Origin: Candidatus Latescibacterota bacterium
GTDB lineage: Bacteria > Krumholzibacteriota > Krumholzibacteriia > WVZY01 > JAKEHA01
DNA length: 64,000 nt
Reading direction: 5' to 3'
NCBI GenBank assembly: GCA_963707635.1
Contig: OY970173.1
Coordinates: 1,312,001 to 1,376,000, forward strand
The notes under the pieces were generated by a model, which did not search any database, had not been told where the DNA came from, and saw nothing but the letters and a program-made list of their open reading frames with translations. The translations under genes were made by a program, and so were the position numbers. Of the stretch, positions 41,922 to 53,622 are shown one piece after another; position 1 is the first letter of the stretch, and each line of letters opens with the position of its first letter.

Positions 41922-44900
41922 ATGAAACAACGGACCCGGCTGGCCGCCCTGGCGTGTGCTTGCATGCTTGCGCTTTCCACCGGCGTGGCTCGCGCCATCA
42001 CCCATCAATTCACTGAGAGCTTTACGACCACGACATACAAGGACGCGGTCAACACCACTGCGGACTGGAATACGGCCGTGGGGCAGCTGAAGCTGTTTCC
42101 GTTCGTGCCGTCTCTCACCGGCACCTACGACACGCCGGGGGGCAGTTTTGGTGTCGCCGTGGCCGGTGATCTCGCCTTCGTAGCGGACGACTTGTCCGGC
42201 CTCCTGATCTTCGACATCATCAACCCGGCGAGCCCGACGCTCGTCGGCACCTACAACACCCCGGGGGATGCCGTCGACGTCGCCGTGGCGGGCGACCTCG
42301 CCTTCGTGGCGGACTACGCAACCGGTCTCGTGATCATCAACATCACCAACCCGGCGAGTCCGACGCTCGTCGGTACCTACAACACTCCGGGAAGTGCCTA
42401 CGGTGTGGCCGTGGCGGGCGACCTCGCCTTCGTGGCGGATCAGGCATCCGGTCTGCAGATCATCAGCATCACCAACCCCGCGCTCCCGACGCTCACCGGC
42501 ACCTATGACACAGCGGGGACTGCCTACAGCGTGGCGGTGGCAGGCGACCTCGCCTTCGTGGCGGACTACACATCCGGTCTCCAGATCATCAACATCGCCA
42601 ATCCAGCGAGTCCGACACTCATCGGCACCTACAACACTCCGGGGCTTGCCTTCGGCGTGGCGGTGGCGGGCGACCTCGCCTTCGTTGCGGACAACACGTT
42701 CGGTCTCCAAATTATCAATATCGCCAATCCGGCGAGCCCGACGCTCACCGGCACGTACAACACCCCCGGGAATGCCTGGGACCTGGAGGTAACAGGCGAC
42801 CTCGCTTTCGTGGCGGACGGCTCATCCGGTCTCGAGATCATCAACATCACCAACCCGGCGAGCCCGACGCTCACCGACTCGTATGACACCCCGGGGACTG
42901 CCTACGGCGTCGTGGTGGCGGGCGACCTCGCCTTCGTGGGAGATGGCAATTCCGGTCTCCAGATCATCAGGGTTGGCCATCCTGTGTCGATTCCGACGCT
43001 GGCCGGCACCTACGACACGCCGGGGGTTGCGAATGACGTCGCGGTGGCGGGCGACCTCGCGTTTGTGGCGGACGGGTCCGCTCTCCAGATCGTCAACATC
43101 ACGACTCCGGCGAGCCCGACGCCCGTTGCCATCTTCGGCACTCCGGGGAGCGCCCAGGGCGTCGCGGTGGCGGGCGATTTGGCCTTTGTGGCGAGCTATG
43201 ATTTCGGCCTCCGGCTCATCAACATCGCCACTCCGGCGAGCCCGACGCTTGCGGGCTCTTATAACACCCCGGGGTTTGCCTACGGTGTTGCGGTGGCAGG
43301 CGACCTCGCCTTCGTGGCGGACGAGGCCTCTGGTCTCCAGATCATCAACATCACCAACCCCGCGCTCCCGACGCTCACCGGCACCTACAACACGCCGGGG
43401 GATGCCCTCGACGTCGTGGTGGCGGGCGATCTCGCCTTCGTGGCGGACGACGCTTCGGGTCTCCAGATCATCAATATCGTCAATCCGGCGAGTCCGACGG
43501 TTACCGGCACATACGACACGCCGGGGAGTGCCACGAGCGTTGCGGTGGCGGGCGACCTCGCCTTCGTGGCGGATTACACATCCGGTCTCCAGATCATCAG
43601 TATTGCCAATCCGGCGAGTCCGACACTGGTCGGCACCTACAACACCCCGGGGAGTGCCTACGGCGTCGCGTTGGCGGGCGACCTGGTCCTCGTGGCGGAC
43701 TTGGCGTCTGGTCTCCAGGTCATCAATATTTCGAACCCCGCGCTCCCGACGCTCACCGGCACCTACAACACGCCGGGGAATGCCTTCGACGTCGTGGTGG
43801 CGGGCGACCTCGCCTTCGTCGCGGACTACCTTTCCGGTCTCCAGGCGATCCAGGTGTTTCAGCACGAGGTGAATGCGAGCCCGAACATCGGCCGATCCCT
43901 CTCGGTTGGGGGCAACGATACGATCCGCCGCGCGCGGCTCTCGACCACGCAGACCGCGGGTGTGAGCTGGGAGGTCAGCGCCAACGCGGGAACGAACTGG
44001 CAGACGATCATCCCCGACAACGCCTGGAACGCGATGACGATTGCGGGCAGCAATCTCCTGTGGCGTTCGACGCACGCGTGGGCCGGTGGCAATCCTGCCG
44101 TGTCGGATCTGCACCTCGAATGGCTGTACGACTACGCAGCGATCGATGCCATCACCGACATCCCCAACGATCAGGGTCGCCAGGTGCGCGTCGAGTGGAC
44201 GCGAAGCGGTCACGATTTCGTCGGGGACGCCACGCAGATCGTCGAGTACGCGGTGTATCGAAAAATCGACCCCGACCTGGGTGCCGTGACGCCGGTGGCA
44301 GCGTCGACGTTCGAGCATCTCAGTCCCGCGGCGAGAGACAACGCGCTCATGATGCTGGCGGCCGGTTGGGACTTCGTTACCACGGTGCCGGTGTTAACAG
44401 AGGACAGCTATGCGGTGGTGGTTCCCACTCTCAAAGACAGCACGATTGTGGCGGGCCCGTACCCGACGACGTTTCGTATTACGGCTCTGACCGCGGCGCC
44501 GGGTGTGTTCTTTCACTCACCGACCGACAGCGGCTACTCGCTGGACAATCTCGCTCCCTCGGTGCCGGCGAACTTCGCGATCGCGTTCAACCCCGGCGGG
44601 GGCAGCGCGCTGGCGTGGGACGAGTCTCCCAACGCGGACTTCCGGTACTTCCGCGTGTATCGTTCCAGCAATCCCAACTTCACGCCGTCGGCAGGAACGC
44701 TGGTGCATTCGACTACCACGAACGGCTGGGTGGACCCGGACAATAACCCCGGGGTGGCCTATTACAAGGTGACGGCCACGGACTTCTCGGGTAACGAAAG
44801 CGGTCCGGCGAACGCTGGCACGATCACTGCAATTGACGGACCGGGCGTGCCGCGGACGTTTGCGCTCTATCCCAATGTTCCCAACCCGTTCAACCCGACC

Positions 44901-45134
44901 ACGCAAATTCGTTACGACGTCCCGGAGAGCGGCGGTGACGTGTCGCTTCGGATCTACGACGTGAGCGGACGCGTGGTGAAAACGCTGGTTTCCGGCGCAC
45001 AGACAGCCGGTTCAAGGTCGCTCGTGTGGGACGGCCGCGACGACGCAGGAGTGCCGGCGGCTTCGGGCGTGTACTTCTACCGGCTCACGGCGCCGGGCTA
45101 CACGAAGACGCACAAGATGGTGTTGATGAAGTAA
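41922..45134 (+). CDS. Secreted LVIVD-repeat protein with FN3-like and C-terminal FlgD-Ig sorting domain
   Basis: GAGGAG RBS, signal peptide, 14 ~42-aa repeats GTYNTPG.A..VAVAGDLAFVAD...GLQIINI.NPASPTL, C-terminal PNVPNPFNPTT...SGVYFYRL...KMVLMK. Confidence 0.9.
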   Translation: MKQRTRLAALACACMLALSTGVARAITHQFTESFTTTTYKDAVNTTADWNTAVGQLKLFPFVPSLTGTYDTPGGSFGVAVAGDLAFVADDLSGLLIFDIINPASPTLVGTYNTPGDAVDVAVAGDLAFVADYATGLVIINITNPASPTLVGTYNTPGSAYGVAVAGDLAFVADQASGLQIISITNPALPTLTGTYDTAGTAYSVAVAGDLAFVADYTSGLQIINIANPASPTLIGTYNTPGLAFGVAVAGDLAFVADNTFGLQIINIANPASPTLTGTYNTPGNAWDLEVTGDLAFVADGSSGLEIINITNPASPTLTDSYDTPGTAYGVVVAGDLAFVGDGNSGLQIIRVGHPVSIPTLAGTYDTPGVANDVAVAGDLAFVADGSALQIVNITTPASPTPVAIFGTPGSAQGVAVAGDLAFVASYDFGLRLINIATPASPTLAGSYNTPGFAYGVAVAGDLAFVADEASGLQIINITNPALPTLTGTYNTPGDALDVVVAGDLAFVADDASGLQIINIVNPASPTVTGTYDTPGSATSVAVAGDLAFVADYTSGLQIISIANPASPTLVGTYNTPGSAYGVALAGDLVLVADLASGLQVINISNPALPTLTGTYNTPGNAFDVVVAGDLAFVADYLSGLQAIQVFQHEVNASPNIGRSLSVGGNDTIRRARLSTTQTAGVSWEVSANAGTNWQTIIPDNAWNAMTIAGSNLLWRSTHAWAGGNPAVSDLHLEWLYDYAAIDAITDIPNDQGRQVRVEWTRSGHDFVGDATQIVEYAVYRKIDPDLGAVTPVAASTFEHLSPAARDNALMMLAAGWDFVTTVPVLTEDSYAVVVPTLKDSTIVAGPYPTTFRITALTAAPGVFFHSPTDSGYSLDNLAPSVPANFAIAFNPGGGSALAWDESPNADFRYFRVYRSSNPNFTPSAGTLVHSTTTNGWVDPDNNPGVAYYKVTATDFSGNESGPANAGTITAIDGPGVPRTFALYPNVPNPFNPTTQIRYDVPESGGDVSLRIYDVSGRVVKTLVSGAQTAGSRSLVWDGRDDAGVPAASGVYFYRLTAPGYTKTHKMVLMK
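42120..43860 (+). repeat. 14 coding tandem repeats of ~126 bp (LVIVD)
   Basis: Recurrent DNA core gtggcgggcgacctcgccttcgtggcgga at ~126-bp spacing. Confidence 0.92.
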
Positions 45135-45215: not shown

Positions 45216-48071
<2,856 letters not shown>

Positions 48072-49149
48072 CGCCCACGTCGCGGCCGGCGCCAAGCTGG
48101 TGCCGTTCGCCGGCTTCGAGATGCCGGTGAGCTACGCCGGCGTGATCGAGGAGCACACCACCGTGCGCGAGCGCGTGGGGCTCTTCGACGTGAGCCACAT
48201 GGGCGAGTTCGTGGTGAGCGGCCCGGACACGTGGAGCTACCTCGACCGTGTCGTCACCAACGACTGTTCGAAGCTCGCCGAGGACGGGGTGCTCTACACG
48301 GTGATGTGCCGCGAGAACGGCACCGTCGTGGACGACCTGCTGGTAACCCGGATGGCCGCGGACCGCGCGCTGATCGTGGTCAACGCGTCCAACATCGAGA
48401 AAGACTTCGCGCACATGAAGCGGCTGGTCGCCGGCCGCGTCGAACTGGAGAACGCCAGCGACGAGTGGGCGCTGATCGCCGTCCAGGGGCCGCGCGCGCA
48501 CGAGCTGGTGAAGACGACGCCGATGCTCGCTGCGGTGCGCGACGAAGTCGACGCGGTCGGGTATTACCGCTGGCGCGCGTTCATGTCCGACGGCGATCGC
48601 TTCATCCTCTCGCGCACCGGATACACCGGCGAGCGCGGTTTCGAGATCTTCGCGCCGCCCGCGCGCGCGCGCGAGTTGTGGGATCAGCTGATGGTGACCG
48701 GCGCCACCATGGGCGTCGCCCCGGCCGGGCTGGGGGCCCGTGACACGCTTCGCTTCGAAGCGTCGTTGTGTCTCTACGGGCACGAGCTGGACGACGAGAC
48801 GACGCCGCTCGAGGCGGGCCTGCACTGGCTGGTCAAGCTCGGCAAGCCGGCGTTCGTGGGTCGCGACGCGCTCCTCGGCGAGAAAGGGCGCGGCTCCCGC
48901 AAGCAGCTGCTCGGTTTCGAGCTGGAAGGTCGCACCATCGCGCGCCAGGGCTACGCCGTCATGCGCGGCGAGTCGATGGTGGGCAAGGTAACGAGCGGGA
49001 CGTGGTCGCCGACCTTGAAGAAGAGCCTGTGCATGGCGTACGTCGACGCGGACAGCGTCGACGCGGAGCTCGCCGTCCAGGTGCGCACGAACGCCGTCGC
49101 CGCGAAACGAGTGCCGATTCCGTTTTATCCGAGCAGAGCTCGAGCATGA

Positions 49150-49252
49150 GACGGGCGGGATCGATGTCGCTTCGACGCGATTTCCCGAGGCGCGCTTTCA
49201 ACTGTCGCGCGCGAAGGGCATGAGCGGAGAAGCGAGCATCGATACCGCCCTC
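49150..49252. repeat. Structured intergenic element, copy 1
   Basis: 59-nt core (49172-49230) shared with 52527-52585, enclosed by an imperfect ~19-bp inverted repeat. Confidence 0.85.
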
Positions 49253-49280
49253 GACTAGCGGAAACGATAAGGAAGCATAC

Positions 49281-49664
49281 ATGGATTTCAAGAACGTACG
49301 GTTCACCAAGGATCACGAATGGGTTCGCTTCGCCGACGGCGGCGACGAGGTCACCATCGGCATCACCGACTTCGCCGCCAGCGAGCTCGGCGACATCGTG
49401 TACGTGGAGCTGCCGAAAGTCGGCGGGGAAGTCCGCGCGGCCGCGTCGATGGGCACCATCGAGGCAGTGAAAACCGTCGCTGATCTGTTCGCGCCGGTAA
49501 GCGGCGTCGTCTCCGCCGTCAACGGTGCTCTCGAGCAGGGTCCCGACCTCGTCAACAAGGACCCCTACGGCGACGGCTGGTTCGTGCGCCTGAAAATGTC
49601 CAGCCGCAAGGAACTCGACGGGCTGATGGACCACGCGGCGTACCAGAAGATGATCGGAAAGTAG
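49281..49664 (+). CDS. gcvH: Glycine cleavage system H protein
   Basis: FTKDHEW, IGITDFA, lipoyl-lysine IEAVKTV, VNKDPYGDGW. Confidence 0.97.
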   Translation: MDFKNVRFTKDHEWVRFADGGDEVTIGITDFAASELGDIVYVELPKVGGEVRAAASMGTIEAVKTVADLFAPVSGVVSAVNGALEQGPDLVNKDPYGDGWFVRLKMSSRKELDGLMDHAAYQKMIGK

Positions 49665-51026
49665 ATGCCGTACACCTACCACACCGACGACGAACGGGAC
49701 GCGATGCTGCGGACCCTCGGGGTCAAGTCCGAGGACGAGCTGATCGACGTCATTCCCGAGAAGTACCACCTGCGCTCGCTCCTGCCCATCGAGAAGGGGC
49801 GCACCGAGCCCGAGACGCTGCGCGTGATGAGCCTGCTCTCGCGCGCCAACCGGCCGGCCGGCCACCTCGTGAGTTTTCTGGGCGGCGGCATCTACGACCA
49901 CACCGTGCCCTCGGTCGTGAAGAACCTGACCAGCCGGCCCGAATTCGCCACCGCGTACACGCCCTACCAGCCCGAGGCGAGCCAGGGGACGCTGCAGGTG
50001 ATCTTCGAGTTTCAGACCCACATCTCGCGGCTCACGCGGCTGCCGGTGGCGAACGCATCCATGTACGACGGCGCCACCGCGCTCGCGGAAGCGTGCCTGA
50101 TGGCGGCCAAGATCACGGGGCGCGACGTGGTGCTGGTACCGCGCGCGCTCAACCCGCGCTACCTGCGGGTGGTGAAGTCGTACGTGTCGGGCCAGCGGGT
50201 CGAGATTCGCACGATCCCGTCCACCGCGGCGGGCGACATCGACGCCACCACGCTCAAGCGCGAGCTGGGCGAGAAGGTGGCCGCGCTGGTGGTCCAGACT
50301 CCGAACTACTTCGGCGTGCTGGAGCGCGGGTGGGAGTTGGAGCGGGACGTCCACGCGGCGGGCGCGCTGGTGGTCGCCAGCGTCGACCCGGTGTCGCTCT
50401 CGCTCCTGCGGCCGCCCGGCGAATGGGGCGCGGACATCGCGGTGGGCGAGTGCCAGCCGCTGGGCAACGAAATGAGCTTCGGCGGCCCGCTGGTCGGCTT
50501 CATGGCGTGCAGGCAGGAGTTCATCCGCCAGATGCCGGGGCGGATCGTAAGCGCCACGCGCGACGTCGACGGGCGCGACGCCTTCGTGCTCGTGCTGCAG
50601 ACCCGCGAGCAGCACATCCGGCGGGAGAAGGCGACGTCCAACATCTGCACCAACCAGGGACTGCTCGCGACGCGCACGTGCATCTATTTGAGCCTCCTTG
50701 GCGAGCACGGGTTCGCCGAGCTGGGCCGCGTGTGCCACGCGCGCGCGCGCAAACTCGCCGACATGATGGCCGCCTGTGACGGTTACGCGCTCGCGTATCC
50801 CGGGCCGTTCTTCCGCGAATTTGTGGTGGCGTGTCCGACCGACGCCGAAACGGTCGTCGCGGCGGCGCGCAAGGAAAACGTCCTCGCCGGCATTCCGCTT
50901 TCGCGTTACTTCGGCCCGCCGGCGCGCCAGCACCTGCTCGTCGCCGTTACCGAGAAGCATCAGGACGAGGACTTCGACAAGCTGTGCGCGGTCTTGAAGC
51001 GGGCCGCGTTGGTGAAGGTGGGCTGA
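49665..51026 (+). CDS. gcvPA: Glycine dehydrogenase subunit 1
   Basis: FLGGGIY, TAYTPYQPEASQG, NASMYDGATA, TREQHIRREKATSNICTNQ. Confidence 0.96.
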   Translation: MPYTYHTDDERDAMLRTLGVKSEDELIDVIPEKYHLRSLLPIEKGRTEPETLRVMSLLSRANRPAGHLVSFLGGGIYDHTVPSVVKNLTSRPEFATAYTPYQPEASQGTLQVIFEFQTHISRLTRLPVANASMYDGATALAEACLMAAKITGRDVVLVPRALNPRYLRVVKSYVSGQRVEIRTIPSTAAGDIDATTLKRELGEKVAALVVQTPNYFGVLERGWELERDVHAAGALVVASVDPVSLSLLRPPGEWGADIAVGECQPLGNEMSFGGPLVGFMACRQEFIRQMPGRIVSATRDVDGRDAFVLVLQTREQHIRREKATSNICTNQGLLATRTCIYLSLLGEHGFAELGRVCHARARKLADMMAACDGYALAYPGPFFREFVVACPTDAETVVAAARKENVLAGIPLSRYFGPPARQHLLVAVTEKHQDEDFDKLCAVLKRAALVKVG

Positions 51027-51028
51027 CC

Positions 51029-52486
51029 GTGCAAGCGACACCGCCCAGTTTCGGACAGACCATCTACGGCAAGAGCCGGCGTGGCCGCCACGGCTACCAC
51101 ATCTCGTCGCGGCCCACGGACGCGCCGCGCGACATTCCACGCGAGTACCTGCGCGACGGCGCGATCGGACTCCCCGAGGTGAGCGAACCCCAGGTGATGC
51201 GGCACTACGTCGAGCTCTCGACCAAGAACCACCACATCGACAAGGATCTCTTCCCGCTGGGCAGCTGTACGATGAAGTACAACCCGAAGGTGAACGACGA
51301 CGTCGCCGCCATGACCGGGTTCGCGGGCCTGCACCCGGAACAGGGCGACGCGGACGCCCAGGGCGCGCTCGAGGTGATGTACCGCCTCGAACGACTCCTC
51401 GCGGCGGTCTCCGGCATGGACGCGGTGAGCGTCCAGCCCGCCGCCGGCGCGCAGGGGGAGATGCTGGGCCTGCTCCTCGCGCGCGCGTACTTCGCGGACC
51501 GAGGCGCCTCGCGCCACAAAGTGCTGGTCCCGGATTCGGCGCACGGGACCAACCCGGCGACGGCGACCATCGTGGGATTCCAGGCCCAGACCATCCAGTC
51601 GGGCCGGGACGGCCGCATCGACCTCGACGTGCTGCGCCGCGCCCTCGACGACGACGTCGCCGTGCTGATGCTCACGGTGCCGAACACGCTCGGGCTGTTC
51701 GAGAAAAACATCGGCGACATCGTCGAGCTGGTCCACAAGCACGGCGGGCTCTGCTACATGGACGGCGCGAACATGAACGCGCTCATGGGGCAGGCGCGGC
51801 CGGGCGACTTCGGCTTCGACATGATGCACTACAACCTGCACAAGACGTTTTCGACCCCGCACGGCGGGGGCGGCCCCGGCTCCGGGCCGGTGGCGGTCAA
51901 GTCGTTCCTGGAGCCGTTTCTGCCCACGCCGCGCGTGGTGGAGAAGGACGGGGGCTTCAGCCTCGACTACCAGCGGCCCAAGTCGGTGGGCGCGCTGCAC
52001 TCGTTCTTCGGGAATTTCGGCATCTACCTGCGCGCGTACACCTACATCACCCGCCTCGGCTCCGACGGCATCCGCCGCGCCAGCTCGACCGCGATCTTGA
52101 ACGCCAACTACCTGGCCAAGCGGATTGCGTCGCGCTTTCCGATCCCGTACGGCGAACGCTGCATGCACGAGTTTGTCGCCACCGGCGAGCCCCTGAAGAA
52201 GTACGGCGTCAGGACGCTCGACGTCGCGAAGCGGCTGCTCGACTTCGGATTCTACGCGCCGACGGTGTATTTCCCGCTCACGGTGCCGGAGGCTCTCATG
52301 GTGGAGCCTACGGAAACCGAGAGCAAGGAGACGCTCGACCGCTTCGCGGAGGCGCTGCTCCAGATCGCGCGCGAAGCGGAGGAATCGCCGGAGGTGCTCA
52401 CTTCGGCGCCGACGAAAACGCCGGTGCGCCGCCTCGACGAGACGAGCGCGAATCGCCACCCGGTGGTGACGGTGCCGATGGAGTGA
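51029..52486 (+). CDS. gcvPB: Glycine dehydrogenase subunit 2
   Basis: GTG start. PLGSCTMKYNP, SAHGTNPAT, NLHKTFSTPHGGGGPG, EPTETESK. Confidence 0.96.
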   Translation: MQATPPSFGQTIYGKSRRGRHGYHISSRPTDAPRDIPREYLRDGAIGLPEVSEPQVMRHYVELSTKNHHIDKDLFPLGSCTMKYNPKVNDDVAAMTGFAGLHPEQGDADAQGALEVMYRLERLLAAVSGMDAVSVQPAAGAQGEMLGLLLARAYFADRGASRHKVLVPDSAHGTNPATATIVGFQAQTIQSGRDGRIDLDVLRRALDDDVAVLMLTVPNTLGLFEKNIGDIVELVHKHGGLCYMDGANMNALMGQARPGDFGFDMMHYNLHKTFSTPHGGGGPGSGPVAVKSFLEPFLPTPRVVEKDGGFSLDYQRPKSVGALHSFFGNFGIYLRAYTYITRLGSDGIRRASSTAILNANYLAKRIASRFPIPYGERCMHEFVATGEPLKKYGVRTLDVAKRLLDFGFYAPTVYFPLTVPEALMVEPTETESKETLDRFAEALLQIAREAEESPEVLTSAPTKTPVRRLDETSANRHPVVTVPME

Positions 52487-52509
52487 TGCTGCGGCGGGCA
52501 CAGAAGTAG

Positions 52510-52602
52510 GGAGGGGCCAACGGTCGTCGACGCGATTTCACGAGGCGCGCTTTCAACCATCGCGCGCGAAGTGCATGAGCGGAGAGGACCGTTGGCCCCT
52601 CC
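52510..52602. repeat. Structured intergenic element, copy 2
   Basis: Perfect 16-bp inverted repeat GGAGGGGCCAACGGTC/GACCGTTGGCCCCTCC around the shared 59-nt core. Confidence 0.85.
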
Positions 52603-52635: not shown

Positions 52636-53622
52636 ATGGTTCAATTCCTCGCCCGTCGCGCGTTCCATGCCCTCATCCTCGTCGCGATCACGCTGACGAT
52701 CACCTTCGTCGTCCTCCACCTCGCGCCCGGCGATCCGGTCGCGCGCTACGTCCAGCCCGACGTCGATCCGGCCGACCTCGCGCATATCCGTCACTCGCTC
52801 GGCCTCGACGACCCGATCCACGTGCAGTATTTCCACTGGGCGAAGAGTTTCCTCTCCGGCGACTTCGGGATGAGCTTCGCGCACCACCGGCCGGTCCGGG
52901 ATCTCCTCGCCGAGACCATTCCCCGCACGCTGCTCCTGACCACGCTGGCGCTCGGCGTCCAGATGCTGCTCGGGGTATGGATCGGCGGGATCGCCGCGCG
53001 CCATCGCCAGCGGGCTGCCGATCACGCGCTCTCGGGTGTGGTGGTCGCCCTGTACGCCTTGCCGCCGTTCTACCTCGCGTACCTGCTCATCACCTGGTTT
53101 GCCATCGACCGCGCGTGGCTCCCGACGGCGGGGATGGCGACACCGGGACTGGACGCGCACGGCTGGGCGTATCTCGCGGATCGCGCACGCCACCTGGTCC
53201 TCCCCGTCTGCGTGCTCGGGGTGGGCAGCGCGGCCGGGTTCGCGCGTTTCACGCGCGGGAGTCTGGTGGACGCGCTCGCGGACGACTACGCGCGCACCGC
53301 GCGCGCGAAAGGTGTCCCCGAGGGACGGGTGGTGTGGCGCCATGCGTTTCGCAACGCGCTGCCGCCGCTCTTCACCGTCGCGGGCTTGAGCGCGCCGTTC
53401 CTGCTCGGCGGTGCCGTGGTCATCGAGACCGTGTTCGCGTGGCCGGGGATGGGATCGCTGATGGTCGACTCGATCGGCTCGCGCGACTACCCGGTGGTGC
53501 TGGCCGTCAATTTCATCGCGGCGTGCCTGGTCATCGCCGGCAATTTTCTGGCGGACGCGGCGAGTGCGTGGGCGGATCCACGCGGCCGGCCCTCCGCCTC
53601 ATCCACACGGTGGGAGCGATGA
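52636..53622 (+). CDS. Oligopeptide/dipeptide-type ABC permease (OppB/DppB-like)
   Basis: APGDP, GDFGMS, EAA-like DYARTARAKG, GAVVIETVFAWPGMG, RDYPVV. Confidence 0.92.
   Translation: MVQFLARRAFHALILVAITLTITFVVLHLAPGDPVARYVQPDVDPADLAHIRHSLGLDDPIHVQYFHWAKSFLSGDFGMSFAHHRPVRDLLAETIPRTLLLTTLALGVQMLLGVWIGGIAARHRQRAADHALSGVVVALYALPPFYLAYLLITWFAIDRAWLPTAGMATPGLDAHGWAYLADRARHLVLPVCVLGVGSAAGFARFTRGSLVDALADDYARTARAKGVPEGRVVWRHAFRNALPPLFTVAGLSAPFLLGGAVVIETVFAWPGMGSLMVDSIGSRDYPVVLAVNFIAACLVIAGNFLADAASAWADPRGRPSASSTRWER

Follow-up and report, generated by a model that had tools for sequence, protein, structure and literature searches.

Invertible hairpin repeats with a conserved core and locus-specific stems in a Candidatus Latescibacterota genome: a probable non-autonomous DNA element

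The window analysed here, a stretch of 64,000 nucleotides (nt) from a Candidatus Latescibacterota bacterium (GTDB class Krumholzibacteriia; assembly GCA_963707635.1, contig OY970173.1, positions 1,312,001 to 1,376,000), contains a glycine cleavage (gcv) operon that harbours two long irregular hairpins, copy 1 and copy 2. An earlier note, made from the letters of the window, had described them as two near-identical cores on unrelated closing stems, each just past a stop codon, and this geometry was reproduced. The cores 49172-49230 and 52527-52585 agree at 55 of 59 positions; two of the four differences form one compensatory pair (CCC/GGG versus CAC/GTG), and the other two lie in the 11-nt apical loop. 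Both copies fold as RNA and as DNA (DNA folding z-scores of -4.9 for copy 1 and -6.6 for copy 2, with none of 200 shuffles equally stable), whereas their closing stems share 43% identity, about the median of unrelated copies (56% of non-orthologous pairs reach the same score). Copy 1 begins 3 nt after the gcvT stop codon and copy 2 begins 23 nt after that of gcvPB. The features of the locus are as follows.

49153..49250, + strand: copy 1, whole element, 98 nt, subfamily A, one of 74 copies in the genome (fold)
49153..49173, + strand: copy 1, 5' arm of the locus-specific outer stem (stem comparison, fold)
49174..49228, + strand: copy 1, core, 55 nt (fold)
49229..49250, + strand: copy 1, 3' arm, with a one-base bulge 7-8 base pairs (bp) below the core (stem comparison)
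52506..52509, + strand: GTAG before copy 2, a chance occurrence and no family tag (at the 5' foot of 2/74 copies)
52510..52602, + strand: copy 2, whole element, 93 nt, subfamily A (fold)
52510..52528, + strand: copy 2, 5' arm, 16 perfect pairs, a G·G mismatch and 2 further pairs (fold, stem comparison)
52529..52583, + strand: copy 2, core, 55 nt (fold)
52584..52602, + strand: copy 2, 3' arm (fold, stem comparison)
48040..49149, + strand: gcvT, host gene (NCBIfam TIGR00528)
49281..49664, + strand: gcvH, host gene (TIGR00527)
49665..51026, + strand: gcvPA, host gene (NF001696)
51029..52486, + strand: gcvPB, host gene (NF003346)
52636..53622, + strand: OppB/DppB-like ABC permease after copy 2 (best matches to Opp-type permease models, all below curated cut-offs)

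From the outer stem towards the tip, the core of copy 1 consists of a GA/GA tandem, a 3-bp CGC/GCG helix, a second GA/GA with a pyrimidine loop, the CCC/GGG helix, a GAG/GAA internal loop, the GCGCGC stem and the 11-nt loop at 49196-49206. Its rare CCC/GGG pair is also found in the orthologous copy of a relative (L232/L245), whose 5' arm differs at 6 of 19 positions and whose stem has thus changed yet stays paired; bulges like the one in the 3' arm of copy 1 recur in many copies. The 59-nt stretch of copy 2 (52527-52585) has 100% matches at two other places in the genome (G000 409718 and 2926466), both on different stems.

The two hairpins are members of a large family. Iterated profile searches of their source genome (G000, a 3.2-Mb single contig of 96% completeness) yielded 72 copies at E ≤ 2e-5, as opposed to 3 weak matches in the reversed genome that served as control, and subfamily profiles added two more, one of which has a near-perfect stem although its score is no better than those of the control. 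The resulting 74 copies, 81-100 nt long and typically about 95 nt, with stems of 18-21 bp, occupy 64 sites and fall into four subfamilies (A, 17; B, 13; C, 21; D, 23), with 10 of the 64 sites being back-to-back doublets in which C is paired with D or B. Within subfamily A, identity amounts to 0.89 in the core and 0.44 in the stem. Nearly all copies (72/74) lie outside called genes. Because the genes were called with a simple purpose-made caller, which missed the permease after copy 2, counts of gene context are approximate: convergent gene pairs are enriched (19/64 sites versus 105/1106 gaps), divergent pairs are depleted (5 sites versus 265 gaps of the same totals), and 47 of the 69 copies that have a neighbouring stop codon lie within 15 nt of it. 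Two peculiar sites may be mentioned here: a subfamily C stem devoid of a core at G000 2665480-2665516, apparently left by a deletion between short direct repeats, and a priA-like gene (named by eye) with elements on both sides at G000 324527-326782, an arrangement of which about 1.5 cases are expected by chance.

How widely is the family distributed? Of the 208 genomes of the phylum examined, 12 contain a 16-base pattern at least three times; all 12 belong to the 36 genomes of the order, and none of the 172 genomes outside the order has the pattern more than twice. A scan of all species gave folded elements under no record titles other than Ca. Krumholzibacteriia, Ca. Latescibacterota and uncultured bacterium; the pattern also has matches in other phyla, but the sequences concerned do not form the hairpin. 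Among the viral-contig loci listed, none of 120 matches the profiles. What is invariant across two families of the order is a 3-bp helix set between two tandem G·A mismatches (GA-CGC-GA / GA-GCG-GA), while the apical tip differs between lineages. One genome (G008) has a lineage-specific subfamily in which an extra tandem G·A replaces two C-G pairs of the apical helix. In a clade that lacks the main element at rpsN-rpsH and rplO-secY, these junctions hold another, shorter palindromic repeat family (L099, L100 and L110, from G006, G010 and G014).

The two parts of the hairpin have different histories: the stem follows the locus and the core follows the genome. In a set of 93 copies drawn from 14 genomes, stem identity is 0.61 and core identity 0.69 between orthologs, whereas pairs within a genome have 0.47 and 0.78, respectively, the pairs being non-independent and a single site contributing about half of the 71 orthologous ones. 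At the rpsN-rpsH junction, the element is present in 11 of the 16 genus genomes read, in a divergent form in one, and lacking in four. An alignment of nine of these orthologs reveals 12 of 21 outer-stem pairs changed on both sides and no such core pair, as judged against a shuffle control that ignores relatedness. The covariation proposed earlier as a sign of a structured element is to be found mainly in the outer stem at orthologous sites, while the structure itself holds. Cores also change places: in G005, an A core sits on a stem from a clade of B-core copies. In two genomes that are not sisters (G001 and G015), an inverted copy lies beside a left-over arm or a core-less hairpin. As to the origin of the arms, the longest matches of 30 A or B arms elsewhere in the genome equal those of shuffled arms. 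At one locus (L238), the outer 7 bp of the stem consist of the end of the host gene, its last 7-8 nt having been captured, together with an inverted copy thereof; being clear in 1 of 86 relative copies, with a 1-nt overlap in one more, this is not the rule. To judge by eye, the stem at L160, next to an HNH gene, seems to have been extended once more, now against flanking DNA that is new.

Our comparison with close relatives shows that the element inverts in place. From 25 metagenome loci we obtained 14 distinct sites that map to G000 by both flanks, of which seven have a subfamily A copy in both, two have another subfamily in G000, and five are empty in G000. Four of the seven orthologous copies are inverted in place, so that about half of them have turned while the flanks diverged by roughly 9%, a rate that is high for a unit of 95 nt within ribosomal-protein and metabolic operons. 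Copy 2 itself is inverted in sequencing run X4, where both junctions are present on contigs at the depth of the flanks and the flanks are 96-97% identical. In two flips (L236 and L230), asymmetric bulges have moved together with the core. That two of the flips were each seen in two samples, and that the bulge moves with the core, makes an assembly artefact unlikely. Divergence is again concentrated in the stem: in seven comparisons at six sites with flanks 89-96% identical (one pair at 76% was left out), the arms are identical at 199 of 266 positions (75%) and the cores at 365 of 385 (95%).

One strand of the element is favoured, and this strand is defined by the element rather than by its surroundings. 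Orientation is indifferent to transcription (20 sense, 27 antisense; p=0.38) and to replication (32/74 on the leading strand; p=0.30). When all 128 stems are read in the orientation of their core, mismatches are nevertheless G·T in 73 cases and A·C in 12, a bias that reaches to pair 18 and vanishes beyond (15 versus 15), and which thereby also marks the edge of the element. Antisense copies have the same preference (22 G·T versus 4 A·C), as do sense copies by trend (8 versus 2, p=0.11). The favoured strand is therefore not the mRNA, and its being favoured whatever the direction of transcription or replication points to single-stranded DNA (ssDNA). Strand-specific mutation could contribute to the G·T bias, which would likewise imply a single-stranded stage.

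How might a hairpin with a fixed core and a free stem be propagated? We think it probable that the family is a non-autonomous DNA element resembling the repetitive extragenic palindromes (REPs), whose structured strand would be bound at the tandem-G·A core and broken near the foot of the stem, with repair giving rise to flips, arm correction, core replacement and new copies. We envision a scenario whereby the locus becomes transiently single-stranded or is extruded, so that the folded strand is exposed; a structure-specific nuclease or strand-transfer enzyme would then bind the core and introduce a break at the foot of the stem or close to it. Repair would either invert the unit, or rewrite one arm from the other, or replace the core from another copy, and it may also seed a new copy after a stop codon, where this is tolerated. 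Under such a scheme the stem sequence would be free, since only pairing and length matter. Conceivably, though with less than an even chance in our estimation, the family exemplifies a class of mobile, invertible ssDNA hairpins without a need for terminal sequence, in which an undescribed enzyme would dock at the tandem-G·A core and act on the stem foot, some two helical turns from there, flipping the whole hairpin, swapping cores between loci and rebuilding stems from local DNA. If so, bacterial hairpin repeats would have a fourth route open to them, and the enzyme would possess a strand-transfer activity on DNA of the ruler type.

Several observations weigh against a dedicated enzyme and its DNA substrate. 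No mobiliser was found among the enzyme families searched, most relatives being represented by incomplete assemblies: Y1_Tnp (PF01797) is lacking in 17 of 17 genus genomes, five of them at least 90% complete, and the RAYT (REP-associated tyrosine transposase) model NF047646 in five of five, with positive controls matched in both searches. The same five genomes gave no reverse transcriptase, one IS110 match (in a single genome) and no Y2 enzyme, the control for the latter being silent as well; tyrosine recombinases have 2-5 matches per genome. The 30 best GIY-YIG loci of the order have no element within 1.5 kb, and a DUF222-HNH candidate was discarded, being flanked by elements in 1 of 31 loci and present in 10/12 element-rich and 19/24 other genomes. 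A DUF559 gene at G000 3198817-3199127 (L158) was rejected too; it is broken into two frames and adjoins no element, with degenerate hairpins nearby. A crude scan for HUH motifs in proteins of 91-259 amino acids was empty, and 126 neighbour proteins contain no recurrent family by all-versus-all BLAST and by eye, a Pfam scan not having been made. Known transposases usually need a conserved terminal sequence or a target duplication. Here, no terminal sequence is conserved at the 5' foot of the 74 copies (GTAG, 2/74; CGTC, 1/74), and direct repeats at the feet match shuffled pairs. The GTAG before copy 2, which had been noted as the tetranucleotide flanking RAYT-associated REPs, is thus present as such but is put down to chance. 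A stop triplet just past the far foot is weakly enriched (10/43 versus 99/823; p=0.03, uncorrected), and we do not rely on it. Furthermore, a bulge at rpoA-rplQ seems, by eye, to stay on one physical arm across two oppositely oriented copies, which fits a flip of the core only; the five empty sites could represent losses rather than gains; and it is from orientation that we infer a DNA rather than an RNA substrate.

The comparison with known systems bears on the kind of element. That the hairpins might be REP- or REPIN-like had been suggested already; their behaviour fits this suggestion, as does the number of dispersed copies, while the anticipated link to GTAG and to a RAYT/TnpA gene does not hold. 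Like REPs and REPINs, the family is a multi-copy extragenic palindrome in both orientations. The REPINs of Pseudomonas fluorescens SBW25, which go with a RAYT, have conserved arms and a less conserved spacer (PMC3116915). They share with our family the long extragenic hairpin, the similar size, the decayed remnants and the view of them as non-autonomous mobile DNA, but the architecture is inside out, the apical core being conserved and the arms locus-specific here, and no RAYT was found. In Escherichia coli, TnpA-REP reads one REP strand by means of conserved mismatches, to which the invariant G·A tandems and the G·T bias would correspond; group 2 REPs and bacterial interspersed mosaic elements further resemble our family in their inverted hetero-doublets of two subfamilies (y-z1/z2, compared with 10/64 sites here) and in their many copies near stop codons (PMC8266576), whereas our element has no GTAG foot, is about three times longer, contains several purine-purine internal loops and is frequently inverted in place. 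For Ssn nucleases, SRM/NTS hairpin repeats have been proposed as the ssDNA substrate of a small nuclease; these are likewise dispersed, but SRMs are 20-50 nt long, as opposed to about 95 nt, and flank their GIY-YIG gene (PMC11893778), which the element does at 0/30 loci. A miniature inverted-repeat transposable element (MITE) derived from IS200/IS605 was rejected, there being no Y1 transposase and no conserved cleavage tetranucleotides at the ends, as was a classical MITE, given that arms are unrelated between loci, so that there are no conserved terminal inverted repeats, and that no target-site duplication is present. Integron attC sites, which follow stop codons, are ssDNA hairpins defined by structure and specific to one strand; their stems vary and bear extrahelical bases, their R boxes at the foot are conserved, and they always face the same way relative to the upstream open reading frame. 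Here, in contrast, the foot is unconserved, the orientation is random and the neighbours are core operons. We found no description of this repeat family in the literature searched, which covered a minority of subscription papers.

The main alternative does without any dedicated enzyme: palindromes would stall replication, template switching would rewrite arms and invert the interior, and gene conversion would homogenise the 55-nt cores, leaving the hairpins as a self-maintaining by-product. Template switching at inverted repeats can by itself homogenise arms and reversibly invert the spacer, but it is a mutational process rather than an element, and the yeast cases described involve 2-5 bp as compared with a conserved 55-nt core here (PMC8604942). 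Flips and paired changes are accounted for in this way, and the missing mobiliser, the gene end captured at L238 and the core-less stem at G000 2665480 fit well. What the idea leaves unexplained is the invariant GA-CGC-GA / GA-GCG-GA motif in two families of the order, the one-strand G·T bias along the whole stem, the narrow length of 81-100 nt, and the difference in presence at 5/14 sites; we therefore consider it unlikely, if still a serious possibility.

Alternatively, the hairpins may be selected by the host as RNA, acting after stop codons as processing sites, 3' stabilisers or translation brakes and being kept for tuning operon expression. E. coli REPs reduce translation when they lie ≤15 nt from the stop codon (as cited in PMC12306157), a distance within which 47/69 copies fall; the retention of the rpsN-rpsH copy in 11 of 16 genomes and the enrichment between convergent genes would also suit such a role. 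On the other hand, antisense copies retain their G·T pairs (22 versus 4) and G·A loops on the strand that is not mRNA, and one and the same site may carry the element in either orientation or lack it. We regard a host function as quite improbable in explaining the family, although a generic effect on mRNA may come as a side benefit. Intrinsic termination was rejected: there is no U-tract, T is the rarest or nearly the rarest base at +1 to +6 of the 74 copies, and copies lie inside operons.

A small structured RNA that is transcribed from each copy on its own and spreads through an RNA intermediate, akin to a bacterial short interspersed element, appears highly unlikely. G·U-type and G·A-type pairs do suit RNA as well, the structured strand folds better as RNA in 69/74 copies, and insertion of a retro-copy would be free in orientation; however, no reverse transcriptase was detected in five of five genomes, no target duplication is seen, and retro-copying does not produce an element turned in place on an unchanged stem. 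Even combined, the RNA readings remain improbable in our view.

A cis-regulatory RNA or ligand sensor for glycine cleavage, as the earlier note had considered on seeing one operon hold two copies, both sense, is refuted by the distribution of copies, 72 more of which adjoin ribosomal-protein and many unrelated genes, the family as a whole showing no preferred orientation (20 sense, 27 antisense), by the in-place inversion of copy 2 in run X4, and by gcv junctions that are empty in most relatives. The gcvT-gcvH gap measures 20-42 nt and is empty in 12 of 14 genus relatives, the other two having a distant variant and a contig break, respectively; a further record (L043) has an inverted copy in this gap. 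After gcvPB, 14 of 15 relatives have no element and the remaining one has a distant antisense variant. The suggested Rfam search, run at two thresholds, gave no match in the window at gathering score, neither to the glycine riboswitch nor to any other covariance model (best E = 6.2).

The spread and persistence of REP-type repeats are still open questions, for which a RAYT that reads a GTAG-tagged hairpin is the standard account. The present family is seen to spread, to flip and to turn over in a lineage that yielded no RAYT. Moreover, with the core following the genome and the stem following the locus, two things that are usually confounded are here separated, and the question becomes testable with short oligonucleotides. 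If a dedicated enzyme exists, it would provide a new structure-guided ssDNA tool; if none does, the family offers a clean natural record of palindrome self-repair.

Two minor observations are recorded in addition. An HNH protein of about 357 amino acids with a weak DUF222 match is encoded in 29/36 genomes of the order, often many times (for example at L160:1202-2275 in G002, and at G000 1260970-1262073 and 227715-228814); one copy is bracketed by two same-strand elements, and many are preceded, as judged by eye, by a promoter-like sequence and by a short complement of the ribosome-binding site. Finally, positions 41964-45134 of the window encode a large secreted-type protein with about 14 tandem repeats of 42 amino acids (126-nt period).

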